Positions 2,501 to 48,315 of a DNA stretch of 64,000 bases are shown piece by piece (position 1 is the stretch's first letter; each line of letters opens with the position of its first letter). The translations under genes were made by a program, and so were the position numbers. The stretch covers positions 18,147 through 82,146 of the forward strand of contig CAYYYS010000009.1 in NCBI GenBank assembly GCA_964476155.1, read 5' to 3'. Below the pieces are notes generated by a model, which saw nothing but the letters and a program-made list of their open reading frames with translations, was not told where the DNA came from and searched no databases. Origin of the DNA: an uncultured Fibrobacteraceae bacterium (GTDB taxonomy: Bacteria; Krumholzibacteriota; Krumholzibacteriia; LZORAL124-64-63).

Positions 2501-2776
2501 ATGCGTCGCTCACAAGGCTTCCTGATCATCGTGGCGGCGACGGTTTTGACCGTCGCCGCTGTTGCGTCGGCCGATATAGCCGACGCCGACGGCGTACCCC
2601 ATGTCCGTAACGGCGCTGAACCGCGCGACGGGGTCGAGGCCGTGCGTCTGGAGGAACTCTGGCGCGCCGGTGACAACGAGGACGACGGCCTGCTGGACGA
2701 CGCCGGCTGGGCCGGCCAGGCGCAGGCCCGTCACTTCGCCGAGCACAATCCCGTCAACCCCCAATTTCCTGTTTGA
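2501..2776 (+). CDS. Small secreted hypothetical protein (91 aa). Its last six codons and stop codon (NPQFPV*) lie inside the 33-bp repeat, so it may be a truncated gene.
   Basis: Signal-peptide-like N-terminus MRRSQGFLIIVAATVLTVAAVASA. Acidic low-complexity body. The stop TGA at 2774-2776 is inside the repeat copy at 2755-2787. Confidence 0.35.
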   Translation: MRRSQGFLIIVAATVLTVAAVASADIADADGVPHVRNGAEPRDGVEAVRLEELWRAGDNEDDGLLDDAGWAGQAQARHFAEHNPVNPQFPV

Positions 2777-2787
2777 CAGAACACTAG
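2755..2787 (+). repeat. Copy 1 of an exact 33-bp direct repeat, CAACCCCCAATTTCCTGTTTGACAGAACACTAG. The second copy is at 47985-48017.
   Basis: Identical 33-mer found by eye at two loci 45.2 kb apart in the same orientation. It contains TGA, TAG and CTA stops used by abutting ORFs. Confidence 0.8.
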
Positions 2788-6700: not shown

Positions 6701-6992
6701 GGAGACCGGCGGCAACGTCATCTCCACCGGCGGCTTCGGCAACCGGTACCGCGGCTACGTGCGTCTGCCCGGCCGCGGCTGGTATGTGTGGGGAGACGAC
6801 GTGAACACCGAGCGCAACGGCAAGCCCCAGGAGGCGCGCCACGAGCTGACCGGCTGCATCCCGGACCACGTTGTCGACCTGACGCCGGCCGACCGCATGC
6901 ACGGCCGGGACCCGCAGTTGGACAAGGCCGTCGAGCTGATGATCGACGCGGCCGACGCCGAGTGGCGCAAGCCGAAACGCGAACCGAAGTAG
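3747..6992 (+). CDS. Tricorn protease homolog: N-terminal TolB-like beta-propeller repeats, PDZ domain, C-terminal S41 peptidase domain. Secreted.
   Basis: ~1080 aa. Signal peptide MPRRLILVATLILMVAATSVFA after AGGAG. Repeated PDG/SPDG propeller blades. PDZ-like GLKVARVLTDGPGD..GDVLLSVDG. S41-like IIDVRNNGGGW and ICNEGSYSNAEIF. Acidic linker KDEKKDDDEGDDEEE. Confidence 0.85.
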   Translation: MPRRLILVATLILMVAATSVFATEALFCRYPAISPNGSTVVFSYQGDLWSVSADGGRALRLTAHQAYDGWPVFAPDGESVAFASDRYGDFDVYVMPAEGGPPTRLTHAETTDRPQAFGPDGDVVYFSARRLFDFPMANQILSVPVTGGTPRRLADFFGDEVATVDGRTFVVAEGRVANGRVHYRGSYQRELFRWTRGGDPVALTENRGYDTHPMVALDGRIYWLGDMDESKTANVWVMDGDGGGKRPLTDYEGEPVRTASLSTDGSRIVFEQGLHLYVMDTAGGEPRRLSVDVAADAIENPVVIETKTGDADYIAVSDDGEEYALVVDGEIVLINKEQGGRATVAVPGPWLEADISFRPGSADTLLLVSDRDGENTVCLLVSDDDEPLLRKSRKHRLIELTDSKDPCHVPQWSPDGKRIAYQHGNGDLYVMDADGQNDKTIAKYWNLGDFSWSPDGRWLAFSRLDPDYNSEIWIVPSEGGEPVNVTRHPEYDEGPVWSADGTVLAWHTTRHSHSPASREYDVYAMYLREADHDRTQEAWEILEKTRDDKPKDEKKDDDEGDDEEEAEEELVVEIDFDEIHLRARRVTSLPGSEYASAIDPKGDKIYFTARIVEDRDLYSVNRFAEDREAVTEGGVNPSGITLDEKGKTFTFLRNGAPATVGADGGKVESTDFTARLVVDRPAVRLRTLDEAWRTMRDRFYDPDMHGVDWPAMRKKYGAWVAHASCDHDFGDVMNFMLGELNASHMGYRPRWESPGDYGDDGWLGLEFDFTHKGKGLKVARVLTDGPGDKAPDRILPGDVLLSVDGRPVGRDVNISAALETRSGLPTWVVVKRDGDELEFQVTPRGFRTIWTLNHRDAERAKRAITEESSDGRVGYVHIQGMGFSEVERFQQNLFAAADGKEALIIDVRNNGGGWTTDLMLTILSQPVHAFTVGRDGETGYPQVERQPFYRWSKPVAVICNEGSYSNAEIFSHAIKTMGRGPVIGMETGGNVISTGGFGNRYRGYVRLPGRGWYVWGDDVNTERNGKPQEARHELTGCIPDHVVDLTPADRMHGRDPQLDKAVELMIDAADAEWRKPKREPK

Positions 6993-6998
6993 GGGAGA

Positions 6999-7469
6999 TC
7001 AGCGCCCGGCCGTAAGCCGGGAGGCGAGCGGGTCGGGCAGGCCGGCGGCACGGATCTTGTCGGCGGCGGTGTGGATGTCGTAGGGGACGCGGTGCATTTC
7101 GATGCGCCGCGTCTTCGTGTCGTAGACGACGTAGGCGGCGCGCGGATCGAGATCGCGGGGCTGGCCCACGCTGCCCGCGTTGATCAGGTAGCGCGCGTGT
7201 GATTCCAGATCGAGGGTCTCAAGCATGTGCGTGACGACTTTCTCGCCGTGCAGCTCTTCGTTGTTGGCGGCCATGTCGTCGTGATTGCCCTTCACCACCG
7301 CGTCGCAGGTCTCGCGCACCAGCTCCAGACAAGCGACCGGGTCGGCGCCGTAGCCCACCACGTCGCCCAGGCTGTACCGGGCGTCCACACCCTGTCCGTC
7401 GGCGTGGGCGAGCACGGCGGTCAGCGCTTCCAGGTTGGCGTGTATGTCGCCGAGGATGGCGTATTTCAT
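6999..7469 (-). CDS. Metallophosphoesterase (YfcE/MPP family).
   Basis: MKYAILGDIHANLEAL, GDVVGYG and GNHD motifs. GGAG 6 nt upstream of the ATG at 7469. The longer ORF to 7970 lacks homology in its N-terminal extension. Confidence 0.8.
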   Translation of the reverse strand: MKYAILGDIHANLEALTAVLAHADGQGVDARYSLGDVVGYGADPVACLELVRETCDAVVKGNHDDMAANNEELHGEKVVTHMLETLDLESHARYLINAGSVGQPRDLDPRAAYVVYDTKTRRIEMHRVPYDIHTAADKIRAAGLPDPLASRLTAGR

Positions 7470-7586
7470 GACGACTCCGGAATTCGCCTGGTGCCGGATC
7501 GCGCGGGACGCTACCAGTCTAGCGCAATGAAGTGTGGCGCGCCATGTCATTACATGGCACCGTGAACGGCAGCGAAAGGATTGACC

Positions 7587-7949
7587 ATGGACCGCAGCAA
7601 CCCCGCAATCCGCGTGATGATGATGCCGCGCGACACCAACGTGCATCGCACGATCTTCGGTGGCGTGATCCTCAGCCATCTCGACCAGGCCGGTGTCATC
7701 GGCGCGCGTCGCGCCGGGTGCCGCCACATCGTGACCGTCGCCATGGACAAGGTGGAGTTTCACGAGCCGGTCCACGTGGGTGATCTGGTCAGCTTCTATA
7801 CGGATGTCTTCAAGAAGGGCCGCACGTCGATAACCATACGGGTCTGCGTGGAGGCGAACCGTTTTGAAACGCGTGATGACGTGGCGGTGACCAGCGCCAA
7901 TATCACTTATGTGAACATCGATGCGGAAGGCCGGCCCGAGCCTATCTGA
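7587..7949 (+). CDS. Acyl-CoA thioesterase, hotdog fold (YciA/YbgC-like).
   Basis: Hotdog thioesterase pattern VMMMPRDTNVHRTIFGGVILSHLDQAG...DKVEFHEPVHVGDLV. AAAGGA RBS 6 nt upstream of ATG 7587. Confidence 0.8.
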   Translation: MDRSNPAIRVMMMPRDTNVHRTIFGGVILSHLDQAGVIGARRAGCRHIVTVAMDKVEFHEPVHVGDLVSFYTDVFKKGRTSITIRVCVEANRFETRDDVAVTSANITYVNIDAEGRPEPI

Positions 7950-7966
7950 GCGATTCGCCGGCAAGC

Positions 7967-8383
7967 TCATAGACCGATTGATATCGTATCGCCCTCGCTT
8001 CCTTCGGCTGGATGCTCTCCGTCCTCGGCCAGAACCCGGACTCTCACCGCTCGCTCGGCCCGCGGCCAGCTCCCCTCGATCACTTCACCCGATACGGCCA
8101 CTTTATCGCCCTTCATTTGCGCCACGTAACGCGTGAGCCGGTATTCGCCGTCGCGATAGCCGTAGCCGTCGCCCGCGTCCTCGTAAAGCACACCCTCGGC
8201 TTGGCCGTGCGCGTCCAGACAGACGATCAGTTCCAACGCATCCAGAGGTCGCTCGTTCGACCATTGCATGATTGGTCCCACCGGCAGGACGTGCCCCGCG
8301 CCGAGCATCAGCACGGGCAGATCGAGGTCGGCGCCGTCGCTGTCGACCAGCGAAAAGGCTCGCCACACACCGTCCGGCAGCAC
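7967..8383 (-). pseudogene. GH31 alpha-glucosidase family C-terminal fragment (~150 aa). The catalytic domain is absent.
   Basis: GH31 C-terminal signatures GAGHVLPVGPIMQ and LYEDAGDGYGY. The minus-strand frame hits a stop at about 8441. No upstream frame encodes a GH31 catalytic domain. Confidence 0.5.
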
Positions 8384-8439
8384 CGGTTCCGGCGCGCGCC
8401 CGGGGGAGGTGTTGCAGGAAACGAGCAGCCCGTCGCAGC

Positions 8440-10206
8440 CTCATCGACAAGGCGGAGTCCTGCGAGCCCCAGCTCGTGCTGGTCTTCGACGACTGGGAGG
8501 CGCTCGCCGGCAAGAGCTTCGGCGCGGTCTCGGGGGAGATGGAACCCAACGACAACCCCAACCACTACCACAAGACCATCCGCTGGCTCGCCAACCACCC
8601 CTGGGTGGAGATCGTCACGCTCGCCGACATGACCACTCGCGCCCAGGCCGAGCCGGGGAACTGGGTCATTGATCAAGGCACGCGCACCGACCTGGACGTG
8701 ATGACCTACCACTGGCTCCAGCACGCCTGCGAGGACAGCTATCACAATTGGTACTACAACGGGTCGGGTTTTCCGGGCAACGAGCAGAGCTTCTACGATC
8801 TGGTGCCGGTGATCAGCGGCGAGCAGGGCGACTACCACGCGCGCGGCGTCACGCCCCTGGCCGACGGACCGCCCATCCCCAGCGGCCTGTCCTTTGGCGA
8901 CGTGAACTCGCCGGGCGGCCTCATCCACGAAACCTGGGACGCCATCGCCGCCATGACGCCGGGCCATCTGCGCACGATGGCCGAGGCCTCGTTCACTGCC
9001 ATGATCTACGAGACCGCCTGGCACGAGGAAGACAGTACCGACTACCAGGACAGCGATGGTTTCGGCAACTGGCTCTATCCCGACACGACCTGGGACGGGC
9101 TTAGCGGCTGGGCCCTGCGCCTGCACAATCACATTCGCGACGCGGGGGGGCTGGTCCTGGCGTCGGCCTGGGCCGATTCCGTTCGCGCCGGGCAACTGAC
9201 GACCTACGCGGCGCCCCGCGCCTTCTTCCTGGATGCCGATCTCGACGGTGTCGACGAACTCGTCTACCGCAACGGCAAGGTCTGGACTCTCTGGCAGACC
9301 GTCGGCGGTCGCTGCCTGCTGGCCGCGCGTTGGAACCCCGATCGTGACGACACCGTCCTGCTGCTGGGCAACCCGCTGGCCAATCCCAGCGCGCCGGGCG
9401 AGGAGGAGTACGCCGACGAGCGCGCCACCCGCTGCTCCGGCTTCAAGGTGATGAACAGCGGCTACGCGGACGACGATTTCCTGGTGATCCCGACCGGGAC
9501 CGCCATGCAGGCGGTTTCTAACGACGGACTGATTACCGAGACCCATACCCTGACCGCCGGATCGGACACGCTGACGACCGCGGTGTCCGAGACGGTCGGC
9601 GGCGACCTGTACCTGCGCTCAGGCCTCAACCCCAACCCCTGGTCGTTGCTGCTGTACGGCCCCGACCCGCTCGTGCGCGAGTACGACGGCGCCTCGCCCG
9701 AAAGCTCGACATGGTACCGTCTGAGTAATGGCGAGGCATCGATCACCGTGCTCTTCGATACCGCTACCTTCGTCCCCGCGCCCATGCACACCGGCTGGGA
9801 CCGTCGCGATCTGGCACTGACCGAAGAGATCGAGCTGTACGGTGACGGCACCTTCACCTTCCGAACCGTCTTCGGCGCCGGCGATGATGATACCGCCGCG
9901 CCCGATGGGCCGCCTTCATCCGATCGCGTCGCCGCGCGTATGCTGCCGCCGGCGCCGAACCCCTTCAACCCGGCCACGGAGATCCGCTTCGTGCTGGATC
10001 GCTCGGCTGACGTGGCGCTCGATATCTACGCGGCTGATGGGCGGCATGTCCGCACGCTCCAACGCGGTGTATTGCCGGCGGGGGAGTCGGCGTTTGTCTG
10101 GCATGGTCGCGACGATGTCGGGCGTGCGGTTTCGGCGGGTCTGTATCTGGTGAAGTTGAGAGCCGGGGGGACGGTGAGTTCGGCGAAGCTGATCCTTGTG
10201 AAGTAA
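8440..10206 (+). CDS. T9SS C-terminal sorting-domain protein, apparently lacking its N-terminus and signal peptide. Likely a truncated carbohydrate-active cargo protein. The ORF track extends it to 8272 through Arg-rich antisense of the GH31 fragment.
   Basis: Coherent protein from LIDKAESCEPQLVLVFDDWEAL onward. C-terminal NPFNPATEIRFVLDRSADVALDIYAADGRHVRTL...GLYLVKL sorting domain. There is no Met or signal peptide where the protein starts making sense. Confidence 0.5.
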   Translation, partial: LIDKAESCEPQLVLVFDDWEALAGKSFGAVSGEMEPNDNPNHYHKTIRWLANHPWVEIVTLADMTTRAQAEPGNWVIDQGTRTDLDVMTYHWLQHACEDSYHNWYYNGSGFPGNEQSFYDLVPVISGEQGDYHARGVTPLADGPPIPSGLSFGDVNSPGGLIHETWDAIAAMTPGHLRTMAEASFTAMIYETAWHEEDSTDYQDSDGFGNWLYPDTTWDGLSGWALRLHNHIRDAGGLVLASAWADSVRAGQLTTYAAPRAFFLDADLDGVDELVYRNGKVWTLWQTVGGRCLLAARWNPDRDDTVLLLGNPLANPSAPGEEEYADERATRCSGFKVMNSGYADDDFLVIPTGTAMQAVSNDGLITETHTLTAGSDTLTTAVSETVGGDLYLRSGLNPNPWSLLLYGPDPLVREYDGASPESSTWYRLSNGEASITVLFDTATFVPAPMHTGWDRRDLALTEEIELYGDGTFTFRTVFGAGDDDTAAPDGPPSSDRVAARMLPPAPNPFNPATEIRFVLDRSADVALDIYAADGRHVRTLQRGVLPAGESAFVWHGRDDVGRAVSAGLYLVKLRAGGTVSSAKLILVK

Positions 10207-11027: not shown

Positions 11028-11185
11028 GATCGTCCCCTCGGCTCCTGCGCCGGCCATTCCGGCGCTGCGCCCAGACTAACATGCGGACGATCACGTCACC
11101 ACGAATGGCGGATCAAGAACCATGGCCTGCAGCCGATCATATCGAGAAAACTGGCCATGGTCCTGACCCGTCGCTAGTCCAGACT

Positions 11186-11296
11186 GCGGACGAGGACATT
11201 TTGCCGCGACCGCAGGGACGCAAAACGGCCGCCTCCAGGGCGGCCGCTTTGCTTGATCGCTACACCCTGCGGCCGCGGCAACATGCCCTCGTCCGC
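11186..11296 (+). repeat. Nested-hairpin repeat element, copy D (sense orientation). ~32-bp outer stem, ACGC, GC-rich inner hairpin (CGGCCGCC-TCCAG-GGCGGCCG), core GCTTGATCGCTACA, stem partner.
   Basis: Outer arms GCGGACGAGGACATTTTGCCGCGACCGCAGGG and CCCTGCGGCCGCGGCAACATGCCCTCGTCCGC are near-perfect reverse complements. Core matches copies A and B at 13/14 nt (a single T/C difference). Confidence 0.75.
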
Positions 11297-11309
11297 ATCC
11301 GGGTAGGTA

Positions 11310-13241: not shown

Positions 13242-13481
13242 GGCCGAATCTCCTTGGCATGTGAACAAGTGTTGGAACTCGCGAGGGTAAGACACTGTGG
13301 CCTTGATCTCTAAAATCCCTACAGACGATAGGTATTTTACAGGATTCGCCTGATATTTACAAGCCCCCTTAGATATTTAAACACTTTTTTGTCGGCTAGC
13401 GAGGTCGATGGAGTGCATGAAATCCACAAAATCCACTAAGACCGCAAAAAGGGTGTCTAACAAATCTATTCGACTACCACT

Positions 13482-13591
13482 GAGGACATAGACAATTCGC
13501 CACGACCACGGGGTGTAGCAATCAAGCGAATCGGCCGCCCTAAAGCGGCCGATTCGCGTCCCCGTGGTCGTGGCGAATTGTCTATGTCCTC
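13482..13591 (-). repeat. Nested-hairpin repeat element, copy A, inverted relative to D. Its terminal arm overlaps the stop codon of the upstream minus-strand gene.
   Basis: Perfect 32-bp outer inverted repeat GAGGACATAGACAATTCGCCACGACCACGGGG / CCCCGTGGTCGTGGCGAATTGTCTATGTCCTC. Core GTGTAGCAATCAAGC. Inner hairpin GCGAATCGGCCGC-CCTAAA-GCGGCCGATTCGC. Confidence 0.8.
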
Positions 13592-14204
13592 AATGGTTGT
13601 CGAACCCCGCTTTGACCATGCCCCAACTCCATTGCTCCGCGGCGATAGGGTTGCAGGGCAGTGCCGGGAAGACACCATTCACGCGCCCGAAGGCCTGATC
13701 CTGACCGAATTTCTCGCTGAGCAGATCGTTGGGTTCGTCGATGGGCCAGGGTGCCAGGTCGGACCAGAACGTGAATACGGCCACACCGCTGCGGCCGGGC
13801 CTCACCTGGCTGTCGTCGGTGGGGACGTACTTGATGATCGGCACGTAGATCTGCAGGTCCGGGTCACCGCTCATGTTCAGTTCGGCGTCGAAGTAGATCA
13901 ATCCGTTCACGCCGAAACAGCGAGCCGTACCCGAGGGATTGTCCCAGCGCACGTACTCGAGGATATCGTCGCGCGAGCAGTTGCCCCCTTCGTCCAGCTT
14001 CAGGTTCAAATGGCTCAGCGAGAATTCGGAGTAGTTGTTCCAGGTTACGCGCATCTCGTAGCGCCAAATGCCGCGCGCGCCGGGTTCAGCCTCTGAAGCC
14101 ATGATCGTGCCGTAAAGCTGTGCGTTTTCGGCGACTGCGGCTGTAGTGATCAGCATGGCCGCGATGAGGGCGATCTTTCCGATGTGCCTTTTGCAAGCTA
14201 TCAT
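13590..14204 (-). CDS. Secreted hypothetical protein with signal peptide.
   Basis: N-terminal MIACKRHIGKIALIAAMLITTAAVA. No recognisable domain. 204-aa ORF with normal composition. Confidence 0.55.
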   Translation of the reverse strand: MIACKRHIGKIALIAAMLITTAAVAENAQLYGTIMASEAEPGARGIWRYEMRVTWNNYSEFSLSHLNLKLDEGGNCSRDDILEYVRWDNPSGTARCFGVNGLIYFDAELNMSGDPDLQIYVPIIKYVPTDDSQVRPGRSGVAVFTFWSDLAPWPIDEPNDLLSEKFGQDQAFGRVNGVFPALPCNPIAAEQWSWGMVKAGFDNH

Positions 14205-17876: not shown

Positions 17877-19940
17877 ATGAAGACGATCGCCCCCTGTCTG
17901 TTTATTTGCACCTTGGCCCTGTTCGCCTGCGCGCCGGCCACCGCCGCCGACCGCGAGGACTTCACCGTGGAGGCGTTTCTCCAGGTACCCATCGTCACAT
18001 CGCCGGTCGTTTCACCCGACGGCGCACGCGTGGCCTATCTCCAGCGCGGACGCGACCTGGAGGAGGATGTCTACGAGTACTTCCTGTGGGTTGCGGACCT
18101 GGAGAGCGGCAAGACCCGCCAGATCAGTTTCGACGGCACACGGATCTCCGGCCTGGGTTGGCGTCCCGACGGCGCCCTGAGTTTTCGCGCCAAACGCGAC
18201 GAGGCCTCCCAGGTATGGATCAACCCACTCGATGGTTCGGAGCCGCGACCGGTGACCGATCTGGCCGACGGTGTGCACGCCTATTGGTGGGCGCCCGACG
18301 GGCAGTCGCTCGCAGTGCTGGCGTCGCCGGCCGAGGATGAAGCCGAGGAAGAGGATGAGGACGCCGTCGACGAAGACCGTGCCGACTGGACCGTCTTCGA
18401 TCGGCTCGAGCAACCCGACGAGTTCGACCAGGTGTGGATCGTGGACGTTCTGCCCGACGGCCCCGCCGACACCGAGCCCCGTCAGCTTACCGAAGCGCCT
18501 CTGAATCCCCAGCACGTGGCCTGGTCGCCCGACGGCAAGCAGCTGGCCGTCACCTACAACGCGCGCTTTTCCGGCCTGGTGGACGAAGAACAGCGCGTCG
18601 GCCTGCTCGATATCGACAGCGGCGAGCTGACCCTGATCAGCGACCCCGACCGTCACGCCTCCCTGGCGGCGTTCAGCCCCGACGGCCGCAGCCTGGCCTA
18701 CTACATGGACCGTGCCGACGATCTGCGCGCCTATCTGAATCTCAAGGACCTCTTCATCTGCGACCTGCGCGATGGTGAGACCCGGGACCTCACGCCCGAC
18801 ACGCAGCTCTGTCTCTCGGGATACGGGTCTACGCCCGCCGATCCGCCCTTCTGGTCGGCCGACGGCCGGCGTATCTATCTGCGCGTGTCCGATCGGCGCG
18901 ACATGAACGTCTTCAGCATCGACGCGCGCAACGGCGAGATGACCCAGACGACCCGGCACGCGGGCAACGTGAGCGGTCTACACATGGCCGGCGACGTGCT
19001 GGCCTACGTGGAGAGCGAACTGCATCGTCCCGGCGCCATCTGGGCCGGCAAGCCCGGGCAGACCCGCCAATTGGTCGACACAGACATAGAGGTAGCGGCC
19101 TACGACCTGATCCCGCCCACCCGCCTCGACCTGCCCGGCCACGATGGCCTCACGGTCGAGGGCTTTCTCTTCCTGCCGCCCGGCAAGGACGCGCAGGACG
19201 GTCCGTTCCCCTTCATCATGGAGATGCACGGCGGGCCTTTCTCGCGTTACGGCAATTCCTGGACGACCCGTTATCCCTGGCAGGTCCTGTCGCACAAGGG
19301 CTACGCGGTCTTCATCGCGAATCCGCGCGGCGGCACCGCCTACGGCCAGGACTTCCTGCGCGGCGTCTATCGCAACTACGGCACCGACGACTACCTGGAC
19401 CTGATGGCCGCCTGCGACGCCTTGGTCGAGCGCGGCATCGCCGATCCGGAGCGCATGGGTTTCACGGGCTACAGCTATGGCGGTCTGTCGACGAACAACG
19501 TCATCTCGCGCACCGATCGCTTCGCCGCCGCCGTGTCGATCGCCGGCATCTTCAATTACGTGTCGGCCATGGGGCAGAGCAATCCGCAGCTCTTCATCGA
19601 CAGCTATCGTCAGCCCTGGGCCGGCGACCTGCAACGCATGTGGGAACACAGCCCGGTCTCGCGGGCCGGCAACCTGGTGACACCGACCCTGGTCATGCAC
19701 GGCACCGAAGACCTGCCCGTCGACCCGCGCCAGTCCATCGAACTGTTCAGCTATCTCCAGCTCAACGGCGCGCCTAGTCGGCTGGTCCTGTATCCGGGGG
19801 AGGGCCACGGCATCAACCGGCCGAGTCACATGCTCGACTACGAGACCCGCGAGCTCGCGTGGTTCGATCACTATCTGCTCGGTGACGAGGACGCCGAGGG
19901 CGCCGCGATGCCGGAGCCCGTGGAGGAGACGGTTCGCTGA
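17877..19940 (+). CDS. S9 family serine peptidase (prolyl oligopeptidase / acylaminoacyl-peptidase-like) with N-terminal beta-propeller. Secreted.
   Basis: Signal peptide MKTIAPCLFICTLALFACAPATAA. Propeller repeats SPDG. Nucleophile elbow GYSYGG. C-terminal alpha/beta-hydrolase residues D and H. Confidence 0.85.
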   Translation: MKTIAPCLFICTLALFACAPATAADREDFTVEAFLQVPIVTSPVVSPDGARVAYLQRGRDLEEDVYEYFLWVADLESGKTRQISFDGTRISGLGWRPDGALSFRAKRDEASQVWINPLDGSEPRPVTDLADGVHAYWWAPDGQSLAVLASPAEDEAEEEDEDAVDEDRADWTVFDRLEQPDEFDQVWIVDVLPDGPADTEPRQLTEAPLNPQHVAWSPDGKQLAVTYNARFSGLVDEEQRVGLLDIDSGELTLISDPDRHASLAAFSPDGRSLAYYMDRADDLRAYLNLKDLFICDLRDGETRDLTPDTQLCLSGYGSTPADPPFWSADGRRIYLRVSDRRDMNVFSIDARNGEMTQTTRHAGNVSGLHMAGDVLAYVESELHRPGAIWAGKPGQTRQLVDTDIEVAAYDLIPPTRLDLPGHDGLTVEGFLFLPPGKDAQDGPFPFIMEMHGGPFSRYGNSWTTRYPWQVLSHKGYAVFIANPRGGTAYGQDFLRGVYRNYGTDDYLDLMAACDALVERGIADPERMGFTGYSYGGLSTNNVISRTDRFAAAVSIAGIFNYVSAMGQSNPQLFIDSYRQPWAGDLQRMWEHSPVSRAGNLVTPTLVMHGTEDLPVDPRQSIELFSYLQLNGAPSRLVLYPGEGHGINRPSHMLDYETRELAWFDHYLLGDEDAEGAAMPEPVEETVR

Positions 19941-25679: not shown

Positions 25680-27101
25680 ATGCGCCGCACCAGAATCGTC
25701 TGCACCGTCGGCCCCGCCACCCGCTCGCGCGAGATGCTCGAGCGTCTCATGCGCGCCGGTCTGGACGTCGTCCGCCTGAACTTCTCCCACGGCTCGCGCG
25801 AGGCCAAGCTCGACACCATCCGCGACATACGCGAAGTGGCGGCCAAGCTGGATCGCCCGGTCGCCATCCTGCAGGATCTGGCGGGTCCCAAGATCCGCAT
25901 CGGCACCTTCGCAAACGGGCCGGTGAGGATCGAAGCCGGTGGCCGGTTCACCCTCACCTCGCGCGACGTGCCCGGCGATGCCGACGAAGTCTCCCTCGTC
26001 TACAAGGATCTCCCCGACGACGTGTCGGTCGGCGATACCCTCCTGCTGGCCGACGGCGCCCTCAACCTGAGCGTCGAGTCGGTCGGCGGACCGGACATCC
26101 ACTGCCGCGTCATCGTCGGCGGCGAGCTGAATTCCAACAAGGGCATCAATCTGCCCAGCGGCACCATCAGTGCGCCCATCCTCGACGAAAAGGACCTGGC
26201 CGACCTGCGCTTCGGGCTGGAGAACGGTGTCGATTACGTGGCCCTGTCCTTCGTGCGCAACGCCGCGGATGTGCGTCTGTGCCTGGCGGCCATGGACGAG
26301 GCCGGCTGCCACGCGCCGGTGATCGCCAAGATCGAGCAGCGCGAGGGAATCGATCATTTCACCGAGATCATACCCCTGGTGGACGGCGTCATGGTCGCTC
26401 GCGGCGACCTGGGCGTGGAGATCCCCATGGAGCAGGTGCCGTCCGTACAGAAGTCGCTCATCTACGAGACCAACGTCATGGCGAAACCCGTGATCACCGC
26501 CACGCAGATGCTGCGCTCGATGGTCGAGAGCCCACAGCCGACCCGCGCCGAGGTGTCGGACGTGGCCAATGCCGTGCTTGACGGCAGCGACGCGATCATG
26601 CTGTCGGAGGAGACCGCTGTCGGCGCGTATCCGATCGAAGCGGTGGAAGCCATGGCGCGTATCGCCGAGGCCGCCGAGGCTGCCTTCCCCTACAAATCCT
26701 GGCGAAGCCGCTGGATCGAACAGAAGTCGGTCACCACCGCCGAAGCTGTCGCCCGCTCCGCGGTGCGCATGGCCCTCGCGGTGGACGCCGCCGCCATCCT
26801 CTGTCTTACCCGCTCGGGCAGCACCGCGCGGCTCGTGGCCAAGCATCGACCGCCACAGCCCATCCTGGCCATGACCGACAATGAGACTACCTGGCGTCGC
26901 CTGGCCCTGGTCTGGGGAGCGGTGCCGATCATAGCGGAGCCGCGGGATGATCTGGACGAGCTCGAGGGGGATGCCTTGCAGAAGGCGGTAGAGTATGGCT
27001 ACTGCAAGCCCGGGCAGACAGTCGTTGTCACGGCCGGGCTGCCGCTGCAGCAGACCGGCACGACCAACCTGATCAAGATCGTGGTTATTCCTGAGGGTTA
27101 A
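25680..27101 (+). CDS. pyk: Pyruvate kinase.
   Basis: MRRTRIVCTVGPAT, NFSHG, MVARGDLGVEIP, SEETAVGAYP motifs. 473 aa. GGAG RBS. Confidence 0.92.
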   Translation: MRRTRIVCTVGPATRSREMLERLMRAGLDVVRLNFSHGSREAKLDTIRDIREVAAKLDRPVAILQDLAGPKIRIGTFANGPVRIEAGGRFTLTSRDVPGDADEVSLVYKDLPDDVSVGDTLLLADGALNLSVESVGGPDIHCRVIVGGELNSNKGINLPSGTISAPILDEKDLADLRFGLENGVDYVALSFVRNAADVRLCLAAMDEAGCHAPVIAKIEQREGIDHFTEIIPLVDGVMVARGDLGVEIPMEQVPSVQKSLIYETNVMAKPVITATQMLRSMVESPQPTRAEVSDVANAVLDGSDAIMLSEETAVGAYPIEAVEAMARIAEAAEAAFPYKSWRSRWIEQKSVTTAEAVARSAVRMALAVDAAAILCLTRSGSTARLVAKHRPPQPILAMTDNETTWRRLALVWGAVPIIAEPRDDLDELEGDALQKAVEYGYCKPGQTVVVTAGLPLQQTGTTNLIKIVVIPEG

Positions 27102-27323
27102 ATCCTATATCCGGCTCTGTGTATTGCTACTGCGACAAAGCCGGGGATGTGTGTGACCATTTACGGGGAACGCTCTCCGGTCACATCCTGTGACCGGGTC
27201 GCTTGGCCTGCGGGCTGCTCCGCCATCCATGGCTCCGCAGCCCTTCGGACATCCCCGTAAATGGTCACACACATCCCCGGCTTTGTCGGTAGTAATACAC
27301 AGAGTCGGGTACAGGATTTAGAC
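27097..27323. repeat. Giant ~225-bp palindromic element: ~75-bp inverted arms (~93% complementary) around a centre with nested hairpins. Sits between the convergent pyk and SRAP genes.
   Basis: Left arm GTTAAATCCTATATCCGGCTCTGTGTATTGCTACTGCGACAAAGCCGGGGATGTGTGTGACCATTTACGGGGA. Right arm is its reverse complement with a few mismatches. Centre has CCGGTCACA-TCC-TGTGACCGG and GGGCTGC...GCAGCCC hairpins. The GGGA-ACGC junction resembles the A/B/D family. Confidence 0.75.
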
Positions 27324-27328
27324 CACAG

Positions 27329-28051
27329 TTATAACAGCTCCAGTTGATCGCCGGGGGCTTCGCCCGGCTCATTCATTGGCATCACACACTCTGGCCCATC
27401 ATTTCGCGGACTGTTCACCAGGGTGTCTACCGGCCAGGCTTCCATGGCTTCGGCGGGGAAGGGTTGTAGCAGGTCTCGCAGCCCGGCGGTCGCGTCTGGC
27501 TGCGCGGTGAGCCAGCGTTCGTAGTCGTTTCGGTGGAGGATGACGGGCATGCGGTCGTGGATGGGGCGTAGCAGGTCATTGGCTGTGGTGGTCAGGATGG
27601 CGCAGGTGTGTCGCGGGTCGCCGGCGGCGGGGCGCCAGGTCTCCCAGAGCCCGGCCATGCAGAATCCGGGCTCGTCTAGAACCCGGAACAGCCAGGGATG
27701 TTTCTGGTCACCGCGTCGTTGCCATTCGAAGAACGCTTCGGCGGGGATGAGGCAGCGCCGCCGTTGGTAGGCTTCGCGAAACGAGGGCTTCTCGGGCGCC
27801 GTCTCCGACCGCGCGTTGATCATGCGGTTGCCGACGGCCGGGTCCTTGGCCCAACCCGGCACGAGCCCCCACTTGAAGGTGCGGGCTTCGCGGTCGGTGT
27901 CGGGCGTGTCCTGAATCGCCGCGACGATCTCCTGGCCCGGCGCGATGTTGTATCGCGGGCGCAGGCCCAGTTCCAGATCGAGAGCCGCGTCCAGGGCCAT
28001 GAGCTGGGCCAGTTCCTCGGGCGACAGCGCCAATGTGAATCGTCCGCACAT
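27329..28051 (-). CDS. yedK: SOS response-associated peptidase (SRAP / YedK family, abasic-site DNA-protein crosslink protein).
   Basis: Invariant N-terminal MCGRF. AAAGGAAAC RBS. ~240 aa. Confidence 0.85.
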   Translation of the reverse strand: MCGRFTLALSPEELAQLMALDAALDLELGLRPRYNIAPGQEIVAAIQDTPDTDREARTFKWGLVPGWAKDPAVGNRMINARSETAPEKPSFREAYQRRRCLIPAEAFFEWQRRGDQKHPWLFRVLDEPGFCMAGLWETWRPAAGDPRHTCAILTTTANDLLRPIHDRMPVILHRNDYERWLTAQPDATAGLRDLLQPFPAEAMEAWPVDTLVNSPRNDGPECVMPMNEPGEAPGDQLELL

Positions 28052-34161: not shown

Positions 34162-34278
34162 TGGGAGGTCGTGGGTGTGATGTCGCGACCGTAGGGTGTA
34201 GCAATCAAGCAAGCCGGCCGCCCTGAAGGCGGCCGGCTTGCGTCCCTACGGTCGCGGCATCACACCCACGACCTGTCC
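34162..34278 (-). repeat. Nested-hairpin repeat element, copy B, same orientation as A. Immediately 3' of the C25 peptidase gene.
   Basis: Outer arms GGTCGTGGGTGTGATGTCGCGACCGTAGGG / CCCTACGGTCGCGGCATCACACCCACGACC (one mismatch). Core GTGTAGCAATCAAGC. Inner hairpin AAGCCGGCCGCC-CTGAAG-GCGGCCGGCTT. Confidence 0.8.
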
Positions 34279-43615: not shown

Positions 43616-44994
43616 AGATCACCCTGACGGTCAACGAACAACGCTACGACCTGGACGTGCAGCCCTTGCGCCGACTGCTCGACGTACTGCGCGAGGACAT
43701 CGGCCTGACCGGCGCCAAAGAAGGCTGCGGCGAGGGGGAGTGCGGCGCCTGCGCCGTGATCCTGGATGGCAAACTCGTCAACGCCTGCCAGGTACCCGTC
43801 TACCATGCCCATGGTCGGTGTCTGCGGACGATCGAAGGCCTGGGTACACCGGAGGATCCCGATCCCGTGCAGGCGGGATTCGTGCAGACCGGTGGCGTGC
43901 AGTGCGGTTTTTGCACCCCGGGGCTGATCATGGCGTCGCGCGCGTTGCTGAACGAAAATCCCGCACCGAGCACCATGGAGATCCGCACTGCCTTGTCCGG
44001 CAATCTCTGTCGCTGCACGGGCTATGGGCGCGTTGTCGAGGCGGTCCATTGGGCCACGTTGCACGAAGGCGGGGATGTATCGGAGCCGGCTGCACCGACA
44101 CCGGTCACGGCGCCCGTGGCTTCGCCCGACGACCAGGCGGTTGTCCATTTGCCCGAATCGCTTGATGCGGCCCTGGATATTCTGGCCGGAGCCAACGGCG
44201 AGACGACGGTCGTCGCGGGCGCCACGGACCTGTCCGTGTTGATGCACCTGGGGCTGGTCCGTCCCACGGTCGTGCTTGATTTGTCGGGCGTGTCCGAACT
44301 GCAGCGCATCGAGGAAGAGGACAGTCATGTGGTTGTCGGAGCCGCGGTCACTTTTACCGACCTGATCCATTCCCCACTAGTCAATCGGGATCTGCCGTCC
44401 CTGGCCGAAGCGGCCCGTCTGGTCGGCGCGCCGGCGGTACAGAACGTGGGCACCATCGGCGGCAACCTGGTCAACGCGTCACCCGGCGCCGACGCCGTGC
44501 CGCCCTTGTTGGCGTTGGACGCCGTGGTTCGCATCGCTTCGAGCCGAGGCACGCGTGAAGTGCCCGTCGACGCTTTCTACCTGGACTACCGATCCTGCGA
44601 TTTGCAGCCGGACGAACTGGTCACGTCGGTGGCCGTCCCCATGCTCCACGACCGCATGAAGCAGGCCTTCTACAAGGCCGGCACAAGACGGGCCCAGTCC
44701 ATCGCGCGGGTGAACCTGGCGTGCCGCGGACGCCTCGACAAGCTCAACTGTTTGCGTGATGTGCGCCTGGCCGCGGGCAGCGTGGCGCCGACCACCCTGC
44801 TGCTGCGCGAGACCATGGATTGGCTCGAGGGCCGCCAGCTCACACCGCAGGATCTCGGCGAGACCACCCGCGAGGCCGCCGCCGTGGCCGCGCGCGAAGT
44901 GACACCTATCGATGATGTGCGCGCCACGGCCGAGTACCGCCGCACGGTGACCGGGAATCTGGTCGCGCGGTTTTTGCGGTCACTGGTTCTTTAG
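43612..44994 (+). CDS. Fused (2Fe-2S)-binding / FAD-binding Mo-hydroxylase subunit (XdhA-like small-medium fusion).
   Basis: N-terminal CGEGECGAC, CGFCTPG, CRCTGY. C-terminal FAD-binding GATDL, GTIGGNL. GTGA start/stop overlap with the upstream gene. Confidence 0.85.
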   Translation: MKITLTVNEQRYDLDVQPLRRLLDVLREDIGLTGAKEGCGEGECGACAVILDGKLVNACQVPVYHAHGRCLRTIEGLGTPEDPDPVQAGFVQTGGVQCGFCTPGLIMASRALLNENPAPSTMEIRTALSGNLCRCTGYGRVVEAVHWATLHEGGDVSEPAAPTPVTAPVASPDDQAVVHLPESLDAALDILAGANGETTVVAGATDLSVLMHLGLVRPTVVLDLSGVSELQRIEEEDSHVVVGAAVTFTDLIHSPLVNRDLPSLAEAARLVGAPAVQNVGTIGGNLVNASPGADAVPPLLALDAVVRIASSRGTREVPVDAFYLDYRSCDLQPDELVTSVAVPMLHDRMKQAFYKAGTRRAQSIARVNLACRGRLDKLNCLRDVRLAAGSVAPTTLLLRETMDWLEGRQLTPQDLGETTREAAAVAAREVTPIDDVRATAEYRRTVTGNLVARFLRSLVL

Positions 44995-45832
44995 CGGGCC
45001 GATGGATCAGCTGATGGCAGCTCGAGCATAACACCTGAAGATTGTCCGCTTCATTACCGCCGCCCAGCGATCGTGGGCGACGGTGGTGAACCTCCAGAAA
45101 GCGCGTTCGCCCGCAGCCTGGTGTTTCGCAGCGGTGGCTGGCGTGGATCATGGCAGCTTGGCGGGTTTTCGGTGGAATAGTCGAACGGTTAGGCTTGCCG
45201 GGCTCCTGGATGACGGCATCACATTGCACGACCTCGGTTGATATGGGCTTGGGACCACGGTCGGTTTGCACCTCGGACTTTCCACACTTTTTACACGTGT
45301 AAACGACGACTTGATAAGGCGGGCTGGAGACGGCCTTTGTTTCGGACCTTTGCGCAAGTTTCTCCGCAAAGTCGTTCAGCGCGGCGAGCAACAATTCGGC
45401 GCGGTCCATTCCTTTTACAGTCGAGCCTTTTCGGTTGCCTAGTTTGCGGATCGTTTCGAACAAGGCTTCATGACGGGCGTATTGTTCGGTTGTGAGTTTT
45501 GTATTCACCGAGACCGGAGCGTCCGTGGGTAGCGTCGGTGATGGTTCGTCCAAATCCAGCGCAGGCAGCTCCGCAACTTGTGGCGCCTGGCGAGCCCGCT
45601 TGCGAGTTGCTCTTACTGTCTGCTCCAACTTGCGACTGCTCGATCGCTCCGCTTCGGCGATCCAACGTTCTTCACTTTCGGGCGTCGCCACCTTGGCCAC
45701 CTCCCGCGCCTTGGTCCAACCCAAATCACCGGCCGCCACCGATCGACGCAGTTGTGGCCACATGGCCGGGGCATCATCTTGGGCGAGAACCAGAACAGAC
45801 GGATCATTAGGATATCCTCTCCTGAGTGTCAC
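44906..45832 (-). CDS. HNH endonuclease, DUF222-type (13E12-repeat-family-like). Likely a selfish/mobile gene.
   Basis: C-terminal HRCETPGCGRTRFLEVHHRRPRSLGGGNEADNLQVLCSSCHQLIH HNH signature. Helical N-terminus as in DUF222. The 3' end overlaps the convergent xdh gene by ~89 bp. AT-rich patch upstream. Confidence 0.7.
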   Translation of the reverse strand: MTLRRGYPNDPSVLVLAQDDAPAMWPQLRRSVAAGDLGWTKAREVAKVATPESEERWIAEAERSSSRKLEQTVRATRKRARQAPQVAELPALDLDEPSPTLPTDAPVSVNTKLTTEQYARHEALFETIRKLGNRKGSTVKGMDRAELLLAALNDFAEKLAQRSETKAVSSPPYQVVVYTCKKCGKSEVQTDRGPKPISTEVVQCDAVIQEPGKPNRSTIPPKTRQAAMIHASHRCETPGCGRTRFLEVHHRRPRSLGGGNEADNLQVLCSSCHQLIHRPAKEPVTAKTARPDSRSPCGGTRPWRAHHR

Positions 45833-47880: not shown

Positions 47881-47984
47881 TCATTCGTATTCCTTGGGCA
47901 CCACGCAGATGAAGACGAAGGGTTCGTCACCCGCGTTGCGGAACTTGTGCAGCTCGTCCGGTGCGACGAAGGCAAAATCGCCGC
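47881..47984 (-). pseudogene. Cupin-domain protein, C-terminal fragment only, truncated at the 33-bp repeat.
   Basis: Minus-strand frame reads ...VGGDFAFVAPDELHKFRNAGDEPFVFICVVPKEYE* (cupin motif-2-like PDELHKFRN). The frame runs into the repeat and reaches a stop at about 48031 with no Met and no cupin motif 1. Confidence 0.5.
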
Positions 47985-48017
47985 CAACCCCCAATTTCCT
48001 GTTTGACAGAACACTAG
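47985..48017 (+). repeat. Copy 2 of the exact 33-bp direct repeat CAACCCCCAATTTCCTGTTTGACAGAACACTAG.
   Basis: Identical to 2755-2787. Abuts the truncated cupin fragment and lies upstream of the RND operon leader. Confidence 0.8.
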
Positions 48018-48315
48018 GGACTTTCGAAGACTAGCACGGCGCGGCGTCGGCGTCACTGTAAGGGCCGTGTGGCGAAATGAGCAGGAGCCGCCTCAAAACG
48101 CCGCGGGAACGACGTTGCGACCGCGTGAAGTTGCCGGTCCGACGATCCCGTGGCGGGAAAGGGCGGCGGCTCCTGCAAGATTCGACGGTCGGAAGAGGTG
48201 GGAATCTCCCGGTAGATCAGACAGAATACGGAATCCCGTGATGGCGGGCAATACGACACCCGGAAATGGTTATGCAACCTTTGGGACCAGGCGTGCGTCT
48301 TTGATCTTCGTGACC

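Follow-up and report, generated by a model that had tools for sequence, protein, structure and literature searches.

The window, i.e. the whole 64,000-nt stretch of DNA analyzed here, contains two copies of a short repeat, each of which adjoins a gene stump. Copy 1 lies between the remnant of a DUF5916-family gene and an intact PAP2 phosphatase gene, and copy 2 lies between the remnant of a cupin gene and the gene of a membrane-fusion protein (MFP). The features at the two sites, with the evidence for each, are:

2501-2776, + strand: N-terminal remnant of a DUF5916-family gene (ORF91; signal peptide and about 84 codons), from BLASTP to the protein of a relative, L062
2751-2787, - strand: copy 1, probably a lone terminal inverted repeat (TIR), from the exact 33-mer and end-to-end alignment with the arms of the L001 element and three other copies
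2784-2787: putative CTAG target of copy 1 (TA at 2785-2786); CTA at 2784-2786 is the PAP2 TAG stop codon
2784-3617, - strand: PAP2 phosphatase gene, intact, on the outer side of copy 1, from Pfam PAP2 and full-length alignment with seven homologues
47881-47983, - strand: C-terminal remnant of a cupin gene (about codons 83-115) abutting the inner edge of copy 2, from a weak Pfam Cupin_2 match on a 37-aa call
47981-48020, - strand: copy 2, probably a lone TIR, reading CCCTAG-TGTTCTGTCAAACAGGAAATTGGGGGTTGGCGG, with its inner edge at about 47983
48014-48017: CTAG at the outer end of copy 2, from reading the sequence
48021-48079: 59 bp that separate copy 2 from conserved intergenic DNA of the cupin-MFP interval, from collinear blastn blocks of the relative L059 on either side

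The 33-mer CAACCCCCAATTTCCTGTTTGACAGAACACTAG has two exact occurrences on the + strand of the window, at 2755-2787 and 47985-48017. No third match was found elsewhere in the window with up to three mismatches allowed, and 100 dinucleotide-preserving shuffles yielded no chance match. When the flanks are included, 2751-2787 and 47981-48017 are identical at 36 of 37 positions. Both the exact pair and the longer match had been described in a sequence-only reading of this DNA, and both were reproduced by motif search and by reading the flanks. The same reading held that the repeat is not palindromic, with which we agree from inspection of the sequence, although a short hairpin with imperfect pairing, TTC(C)TGT-TTG-ACAGAA, is present beside CTAG. 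The consensus drawn from four contexts, (C)GCCAACCCCCAATTTCCTGTTTGACAGAACACTAG(GG), is about 37 bp long and thus slightly longer than the 33-mer; we call this unit R. Copy 1 departs from the consensus at both edges. Read from its outer to its inner end on the minus strand, it is CTAG-TGTTCTGTCAAACAGGAAATTGGGGGTTGaCG, with C2784 as the outer terminal base and the inner edge at about 2753-2755. No inverted partner of R was found in the window or the fetched contigs at up to 15 mismatches in 39, and no family of Rfam 15 overlapped R at the gathering threshold.

An exact scan with the 23-mer core of R gave no match in the GTDB species-representative genomes or in IMG/VR. A metagenome scan found three contigs, all from one WGS metagenome, and one of them was the copy-1 locus with two SNPs in the flanks. 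The sequence-only reading had called for a count of further copies. R does occur at two further loci, L018 and L019, where both flanks are unrelated to those in the window, and is therefore a dispersed unit. Their GC contents are 0.60-0.62, compared with 0.64 for the window, and to judge by the shared metagenome and the similar GC alone, they may come from the same organism. In L018 the run of C is shorter by one C, and CTAG is again the stop codon of a complete gene on the opposite strand, here a Zn-ribbon gene on the right.

Two identical repeats in one metagenomic contig raise the question of a chimeric join at a common k-mer. A length of 33 bp is a common k value of SPAdes, and short Logan contigs break at R. 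However, these Logan contigs were built with k = 31, and a genuine genomic repeat of 33 bp would be expected to end them within R. Exact-protein look-ups retrieved 23 contigs with PAP2 and 20 with the MFP beside copy 2, in JGI, ENA and Logan assemblies that stem from different samples. The copy-1 junction was identical in 10 contigs and the copy-2 junction in seven, and every junction-spanning contig was base-identical to the window for 60 bp on each side; in all, >15 independent assemblies agree. Base-identical junctions also occur in L020, which is from a separate WGS metagenome. Swapped junctions (A-R-D or C-R-B) did not occur among these assemblies. Moreover, exchanging the flanks would repair neither truncated gene, and the flanks of each copy are syntenic in relatives. 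The chance that the repeat is an assembly artefact is therefore negligible, which disposes of the mis-join that the earlier reading had listed among its options.

At copy 1, the + strand ORF at 2501-2776 ends in a TGA (2774-2776) inside R, as ...NPQFPV*. This had been noted before, together with the suggestion that the ORF is truncated, and the suggestion proved right: the ORF corresponds to the first ~84 codons of a DUF5916 gene of 673-752 aa. Residues 56-84 of ORF91 are 76% identical to residues 44-72 of the 752-aa DUF5916 protein of L062 (BLASTP, E = 2e-11), and the homology stops at ...AEHNP (~2752), where R starts. A homologue search with ORF91 returned nothing beyond ORF91 itself. We had at one time taken ORF91 for the N-terminus of a beta-propeller protein, and this was replaced by DUF5916 after pairwise comparison with the syntenic protein. 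The position and orientation of ORF91 are those of DUF5916 in relatives, where the gene is convergent with PAP2. Inward of copy 1, DUF5916 has thus lost 1.8 kb or more.

The PAP2 gene on the other side is a different case. Seven PAP2 homologues (66-83% identity) all end in ...SFSFSF or a close variant, which indicates that the gene is complete and that its stop codon is at the native position. In the relative L061, an unoccupied TTC-TAG is present at the homologous stop. The earlier statement that the repeat supplies the PAP2 stop is thus literally true (CTA at 2784-2786), but PAP2 was not truncated and the stop is its own. In the relative with 83% identity, PAP2 and the convergent 673-aa DUF5916 gene overlap by 4 nt, which is consistent with a shared CTAG or CTAA. 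DUF5916 lies farther downstream of PAP2 in L062, in which four small genes occupy the space between them (6970-9047), including an HTH/DUF6922 and AbiEii-like pair that resembles a toxin-antitoxin system. The spot between PAP2 and DUF5916 is therefore a recurrent site of change.

At copy 2, the stump comprises the last 33 codons of a cupin gene. The cupin region of L059 is 88.6% identical to the window over 114 nt by blastn, and this homology begins at 47983, the inner edge of R. Three relatives, whose NTPases are 84, 78 and 74% identical, share the order RND, MFP, an intergenic region of 321-376 bp, cupin, an ORF of about 97 aa and NTPase; the cupins in all three are complete (115-129 aa). 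The MFP-proximal part of the intergenic DNA is collinear with L059 up to ~48080. Thus, R and the 59 bp next to it stand in place of ~337 bp of ancestral sequence. We considered whether the 59 bp are a remnant of the cupin 5' coding region, and only matches of 18-26 nt were obtained, which were not significant (E = 0.035). A second CTAG is present at 48031-48034, 13 bp past copy 2 (CTAGGGACTTTCGAAGACTAG). Beside it, the minus-strand CTAGTCTTC resembles the TIR tip CTAGTGTTC and might be the vestige of a further end.

A pair of identical direct repeats (33-37 bp) that lie 45 kb from each other, with an HNH-type ORF in between, could also be attL/attR-type or other site-specific recombination sites that bound an integrated, invertible or excisable segment. 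The sequence-only reading had offered both an att core and a recombination site. Several observations speak against them. R is found at two further loci with unrelated flanks, and the TIRs of short MITEs are its homologues (see below). Relatives that lack R keep NTPase, the ~97-aa ORF and cupin beside MFP and RND, and keep PAP2 beside DUF5916. This synteny comparison, which had been proposed for the PAP2 and RND loci, revealed that the genes flanking each R site are neighbors in relatives, and therefore neither site is the border of an island. The GC content varies between 0.58 and 0.68 across the interval with no step at either copy, and no alternative junctions were seen in the >15 assemblies. 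In sum, the repeat is not confined to borders, synteny is unbroken, and the GC content gives no sign of an island. We regard recombination sites as a highly improbable explanation, and the direct arrangement of two copies 45 kb apart is without functional meaning.

A relaxed scan gave a further match. In L001, which is the same contig 5.8 kb to the left of the window, a segment matched R at 27 of 39 positions. Two such segments in inverted orientation form a 166-bp foldback element (19301-19466) with CTAG at both ends. Its arms are 57 nt long and 86% complementary, and its predicted folding energy is -58 kcal/mol (z = -11). An outer block, CTAGTG.T.TGTCAA, and an inner block, GGG.TTGGCG, are common to the L001 arms and the four R copies. 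Identity between R and the arms is only 27/39, yet both boundaries coincide in the block alignment, which implies that R is equivalent to one whole arm. The L001 element lies between a PBP_like_2 gene and an AAA_14/DUF4143 gene and is a complete MITE of a sister subfamily; its right CTAG is the TAG stop codon of the AAA_14 gene.

The two-block pattern has 36 copies in the genome collection, compared with ~0.3 expected by chance. Nearly all are in Planctomycetota, including Botrimarina colliarenosi and Thermoguttaceae, and more than 20 copies are in one Pirellulaceae MAG. The matches outside Planctomycetota were in one Saprospiraceae MAG and one cyanobacterial MAG, and the pattern had no match in IMG/VR. 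For about 20 of them, a partner end in inverted orientation lies at a distance of 90-220 bp, which makes them complete MITEs; the unpaired copies are truncated or lone, as R is. Complete members are 105-235 bp long and non-coding and have variable interiors (e.g. the 129-bp element at 2693-2821 of L045). The family as a whole, as in the L001 element, is bounded by TIRs and is small and devoid of coding capacity, while R itself represents one TIR. A complete R-type element, with two inverted R copies, was not found in any DNA searched. One candidate autonomous element in L045 was rejected, since the 3.26-kb spacing of its ends reflects two separate MITEs with ordinary genes between them. As far as we could find, this family, with its two-block TIR of ~35 bp and its tie to CTAG, has apparently not been described. 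Besides Planctomycetota, in which it is abundant, it occurs in three or more further phyla, counting the Eisenbacteria-like genome of the window.

In the Pirellulaceae MAG MFD09964.bin.2.82 (L022, L024, L030, L041, L042, L050 and L052), many of the MITEs share an internal hairpin, GGTCAGGTACCAAAAGCCGGAACGGCCCTTCGGGTGCTTCGCACTTTTGGTACCTGACC, and the interior of others is a different one, which can face either way. Small palindromic elements that are nested or modular are thereby suggested.

Short units of this kind might alternatively be REP-like, spread by a RAYT/IS200-type Y1 transposase, in which case inverted pairs such as that in L001 would be REPIN-like doublets. R is indeed short, lies at gene 3' ends and between convergent genes, occurs singly and in inverted doublets, and has a small imperfect hairpin next to CTAG. 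However, this AT-rich hairpin is a weak one, and R as such is no palindrome. The complete members have the classic arrangement of TIR, spacer and TIR with variable interiors. An IS630-type transposase lies directly beside one TIR of the family. None of the Y1 type was seen in the fetched loci. Gene truncations alongside the copies are also not the behavior of REP units. A REP origin is very unlikely. Some other identities were dropped on the basis of the sequence, i.e. a tRNA/tmRNA 3' end, a CRISPR repeat, a dif/Xer site, an integron attC site and a Tn3-type 38-bp inverted repeat, because no array, palindromic core or GGGG...TAAG ends were present and because homology with MITEs explains R. 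We also looked for a hybrid promoter. A perfect outward TTGACA lies 9 bp from the tip of R, and copy 2 is 427 bp upstream of the RND operon, yet a sigma-70-type scan gave no promoter-like site at either copy.

The flanks of the family indicate where its members insert. We counted the bases next to the 20 partner ends, which had been defined independently of their flanks. C was found at 20 of 20, T at 17, A at 18 and G at 19, and positions 5-6 were random; the exact CTAG was present at 14 of the 20 partner ends of complete MITEs. A CTAG bias followed by random bases ties CTAG to the insertion sites. Six right ends of complete MITEs (in L024, L037, L039, L044, L047 and L054) had decayed flanks, for which the readings were CGAG, CTTG, CTGG, CAAG, CCAG and CTAT. 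In this small sample, five of the six changes were at the central T or A, and the first C was always kept.

CTAG is scarce in the window, which has 23 sites compared with ~210 expected from base composition, an approximately 9-fold depletion. Given this scarcity, a TAG stop codon that follows a C may be one of the few targets left. CTAG coincides with a TAG stop in three cases: PAP2, the Zn-ribbon gene of L018 and the AAA_14 gene by the L001 element. They would illustrate how TAG stop codons become the landing place of a CTAG-specific element when the genome is GC-rich and poor in CTAG.

Taking the above together, it is quite likely that the R copies are lone TIRs of a small CTAG-targeting transposon, probably of the IS630/Tc1-mariner type, and that they lie beside one-sided deletions. 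One option of the earlier reading, the terminal remnant of a mobile element that had hit two genes, is supported by the TIR homology and the two gene stumps.

The transposon family has to be considered separately. CTAG is a classical target of IS630 elements, and with moderate confidence, we would file the family under IS630/Tc1-mariner. This is because one degraded transposase adjoins one TIR of the family, in L034, and this remnant is the sole feature that separates IS630 from IS5. Inward of the family TIR at 895-929, L034 has a transposase gene that is frameshifted and lacks its 5' part. The remnant matches NCBIfam NF033545 (IS630 family; E = 5e-16, 58.9 bits), which is below the 100-bit cutoff for whole proteins because just profile positions 241-298, the last 58, are left. 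It is 55% identical over 185 aa to a plasmid transposase of Acaryochloris marina, for which two ORFs jointly cover the IS630 profile. The Acaryochloris element is complete, ~1.38 kb long and bounded by CTAG, and the sequence of its TIR differs from that of the R family. The second TIR of the L034 element was not recognizable. No transposase gene was found in the window or in the other 35 fetched family loci, and none that lies between R-type TIRs turned up in the DNA searched.

One point of comparison is ISY100, an IS630-family element. Its transposase footprint spans the whole inverted repeat, single-end insertions are the commonest product in vitro, and the target TA is duplicated (PMC2170065). 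Like IS630/ISY100 and the MITEs derived from them, the R family has TIRs that measure a few tens of bp, in which two conserved blocks enclose a variable middle. It would likewise insert at a TA inside CTAG, has non-coding derivatives of 105-235 bp and has one IS630-family transposase remnant alongside. In contrast, the TIR is ~35 bp here and 24 bp in ISY100, the R TIR sequence matches nothing retrievable, and the copies in the window are single TIRs and not complete elements.

The same lone TIRs could instead derive from an IS5-family element or MITE that duplicates the 4-bp CTAG, as in MITEPsy1/ISPsy2 of Pseudomonas syringae, and the model of adjacent deletion would be unchanged. MITEPsy1 is likewise a small TIR element at CTAG. 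This IS5 derivative has 18-nt IS5-type TIRs, GGAAGGTCTGAAAAAGCC, and duplicates 4 nt at its target, which is CTAG or YTAA (PMC3189936). Complete members of our family have CTAG at either end, and such flanks are equally compatible with duplication of TA in a CTAG target and with duplication of all four bases, so the two are inseparable from these flanks. However, the sole transposase found with a family TIR is of the IS630 type, and none of the IS5 type was seen near a copy. In Acaryochloris, the complete IS630-family relative has CTAG ends as well. The R TIR is unrelated to GGAAGGTCTGAAAAAGCC and unlike the IS5-type ends given in PMC3189936. In addition, the C beside the TIR core was invariant (20/20) despite mutations in TA, which fits a C that is part of the element. 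We consider IS5 an unlikely, minor rival.

The course of events at the two sites can be modeled from the IS630-type reading. Each R copy would be one complete ~35-bp TIR of a small cut-and-paste transposon, which was either an insertion sequence or a MITE derived from one. At copy 1, the element would have entered the CTAG formed by the last PAP2 codon and the stop (TTC-TAG), and the convergent DUF5916 gene of one relative may end at that same position. At copy 2, it would have entered the cupin gene or a site just upstream. In both cases, the outer junction, which was presumably made by transposase, is precise and intact. What has been lost lies inward of the TIR and comprises the interior of the element, the second TIR and adjacent host DNA, the last of these being at least 1.8 kb of DUF5916 at one site and ~250 bp of cupin together with the region upstream of it at the other. 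The stump ORF closes within the TIR because the TIR contains TGA and TAG.

What is observed comprises TIR homology, association with CTAG, the lone state of the copies, genuine junctions, synteny conserved across both sites and gene truncation inward of the TIR. The lone TIRs themselves would have arisen by one of two routes. A single end may have been integrated and then subjected to degradative repair, during which bound transposase would shield the TIR. Alternatively, a complete foldback element may have been inserted first and later suffered a one-sided deletion from the base of the loop, stimulated by the hairpin. All four R-type copies are lone and identical and break within ~2 nt of the inner edge of the TIR, and three lone family copies in the Pirellulaceae MAG share one break position. 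Random deletion would not predict identical lone copies with a fixed inner break. Protection by the bound transposase would explain the fixed break. That lone TIRs are a regular product of single-end IS630-type integration and repair, with the binding site shielded by transposase, is nevertheless a speculative idea that we hold to be improbable. If it were true, host DNA to one side would be removed with each failed transposition, and an exact 35-bp scar would stay behind. The elements would then be a directed source of gene-truncating deletions, and the scars could still serve as transposase-binding sites or recombination hot spots.

Isolated ends go by the name of solo TIRs in work on Hsmar1/SETMAR (PMC2847698, PMC6375154). 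Like the solo TIRs of eukaryotic Tc1/mariner elements, the copies described here are isolated single TIRs left after loss of the remainder of the element. Unlike them, they are bacterial, mutually identical and broken at a fixed inner position, and they abut deletions in host genes. The fixed inner breakpoint is a small mechanistic puzzle. For annotation, the analysis explains the DUF5916 and cupin remnants as pseudogene stumps, establishes PAP2 as an intact gene and removes a suspected mis-assembly or island border from the contig.

Some other features of the window were recorded. The HNH endonuclease-domain ORF (308 aa) is at 44906-45832 on the minus strand; it was called only in some assemblies (L012 and L013), although the DNA is identical. 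The sole Rfam match in the window is a TwoAYGGAY RNA (RF01731) at 27130-27291 on the minus strand, with 46.4 bits against a gathering threshold of 43 (E = 2e-4). It is embedded in long near-perfect inverted repeats (27084-27335), including 37-nt arms that are 100% complementary. Finally, a nested-hairpin element of ~110-136 nt has three copies, one of them inverted, at 11185-11297, 13469-13604 and 34166-34274. The copies share ...CGCGACCGYAGGG, GTAGCAATCAAGC, GGCCGCC..GGCGGCC and GCGTCCC..CGGTCGCG. Its sequence is unrelated to R and had no Rfam match at the gathering threshold; the element may represent a structured RNA or else a second family of MITEs.
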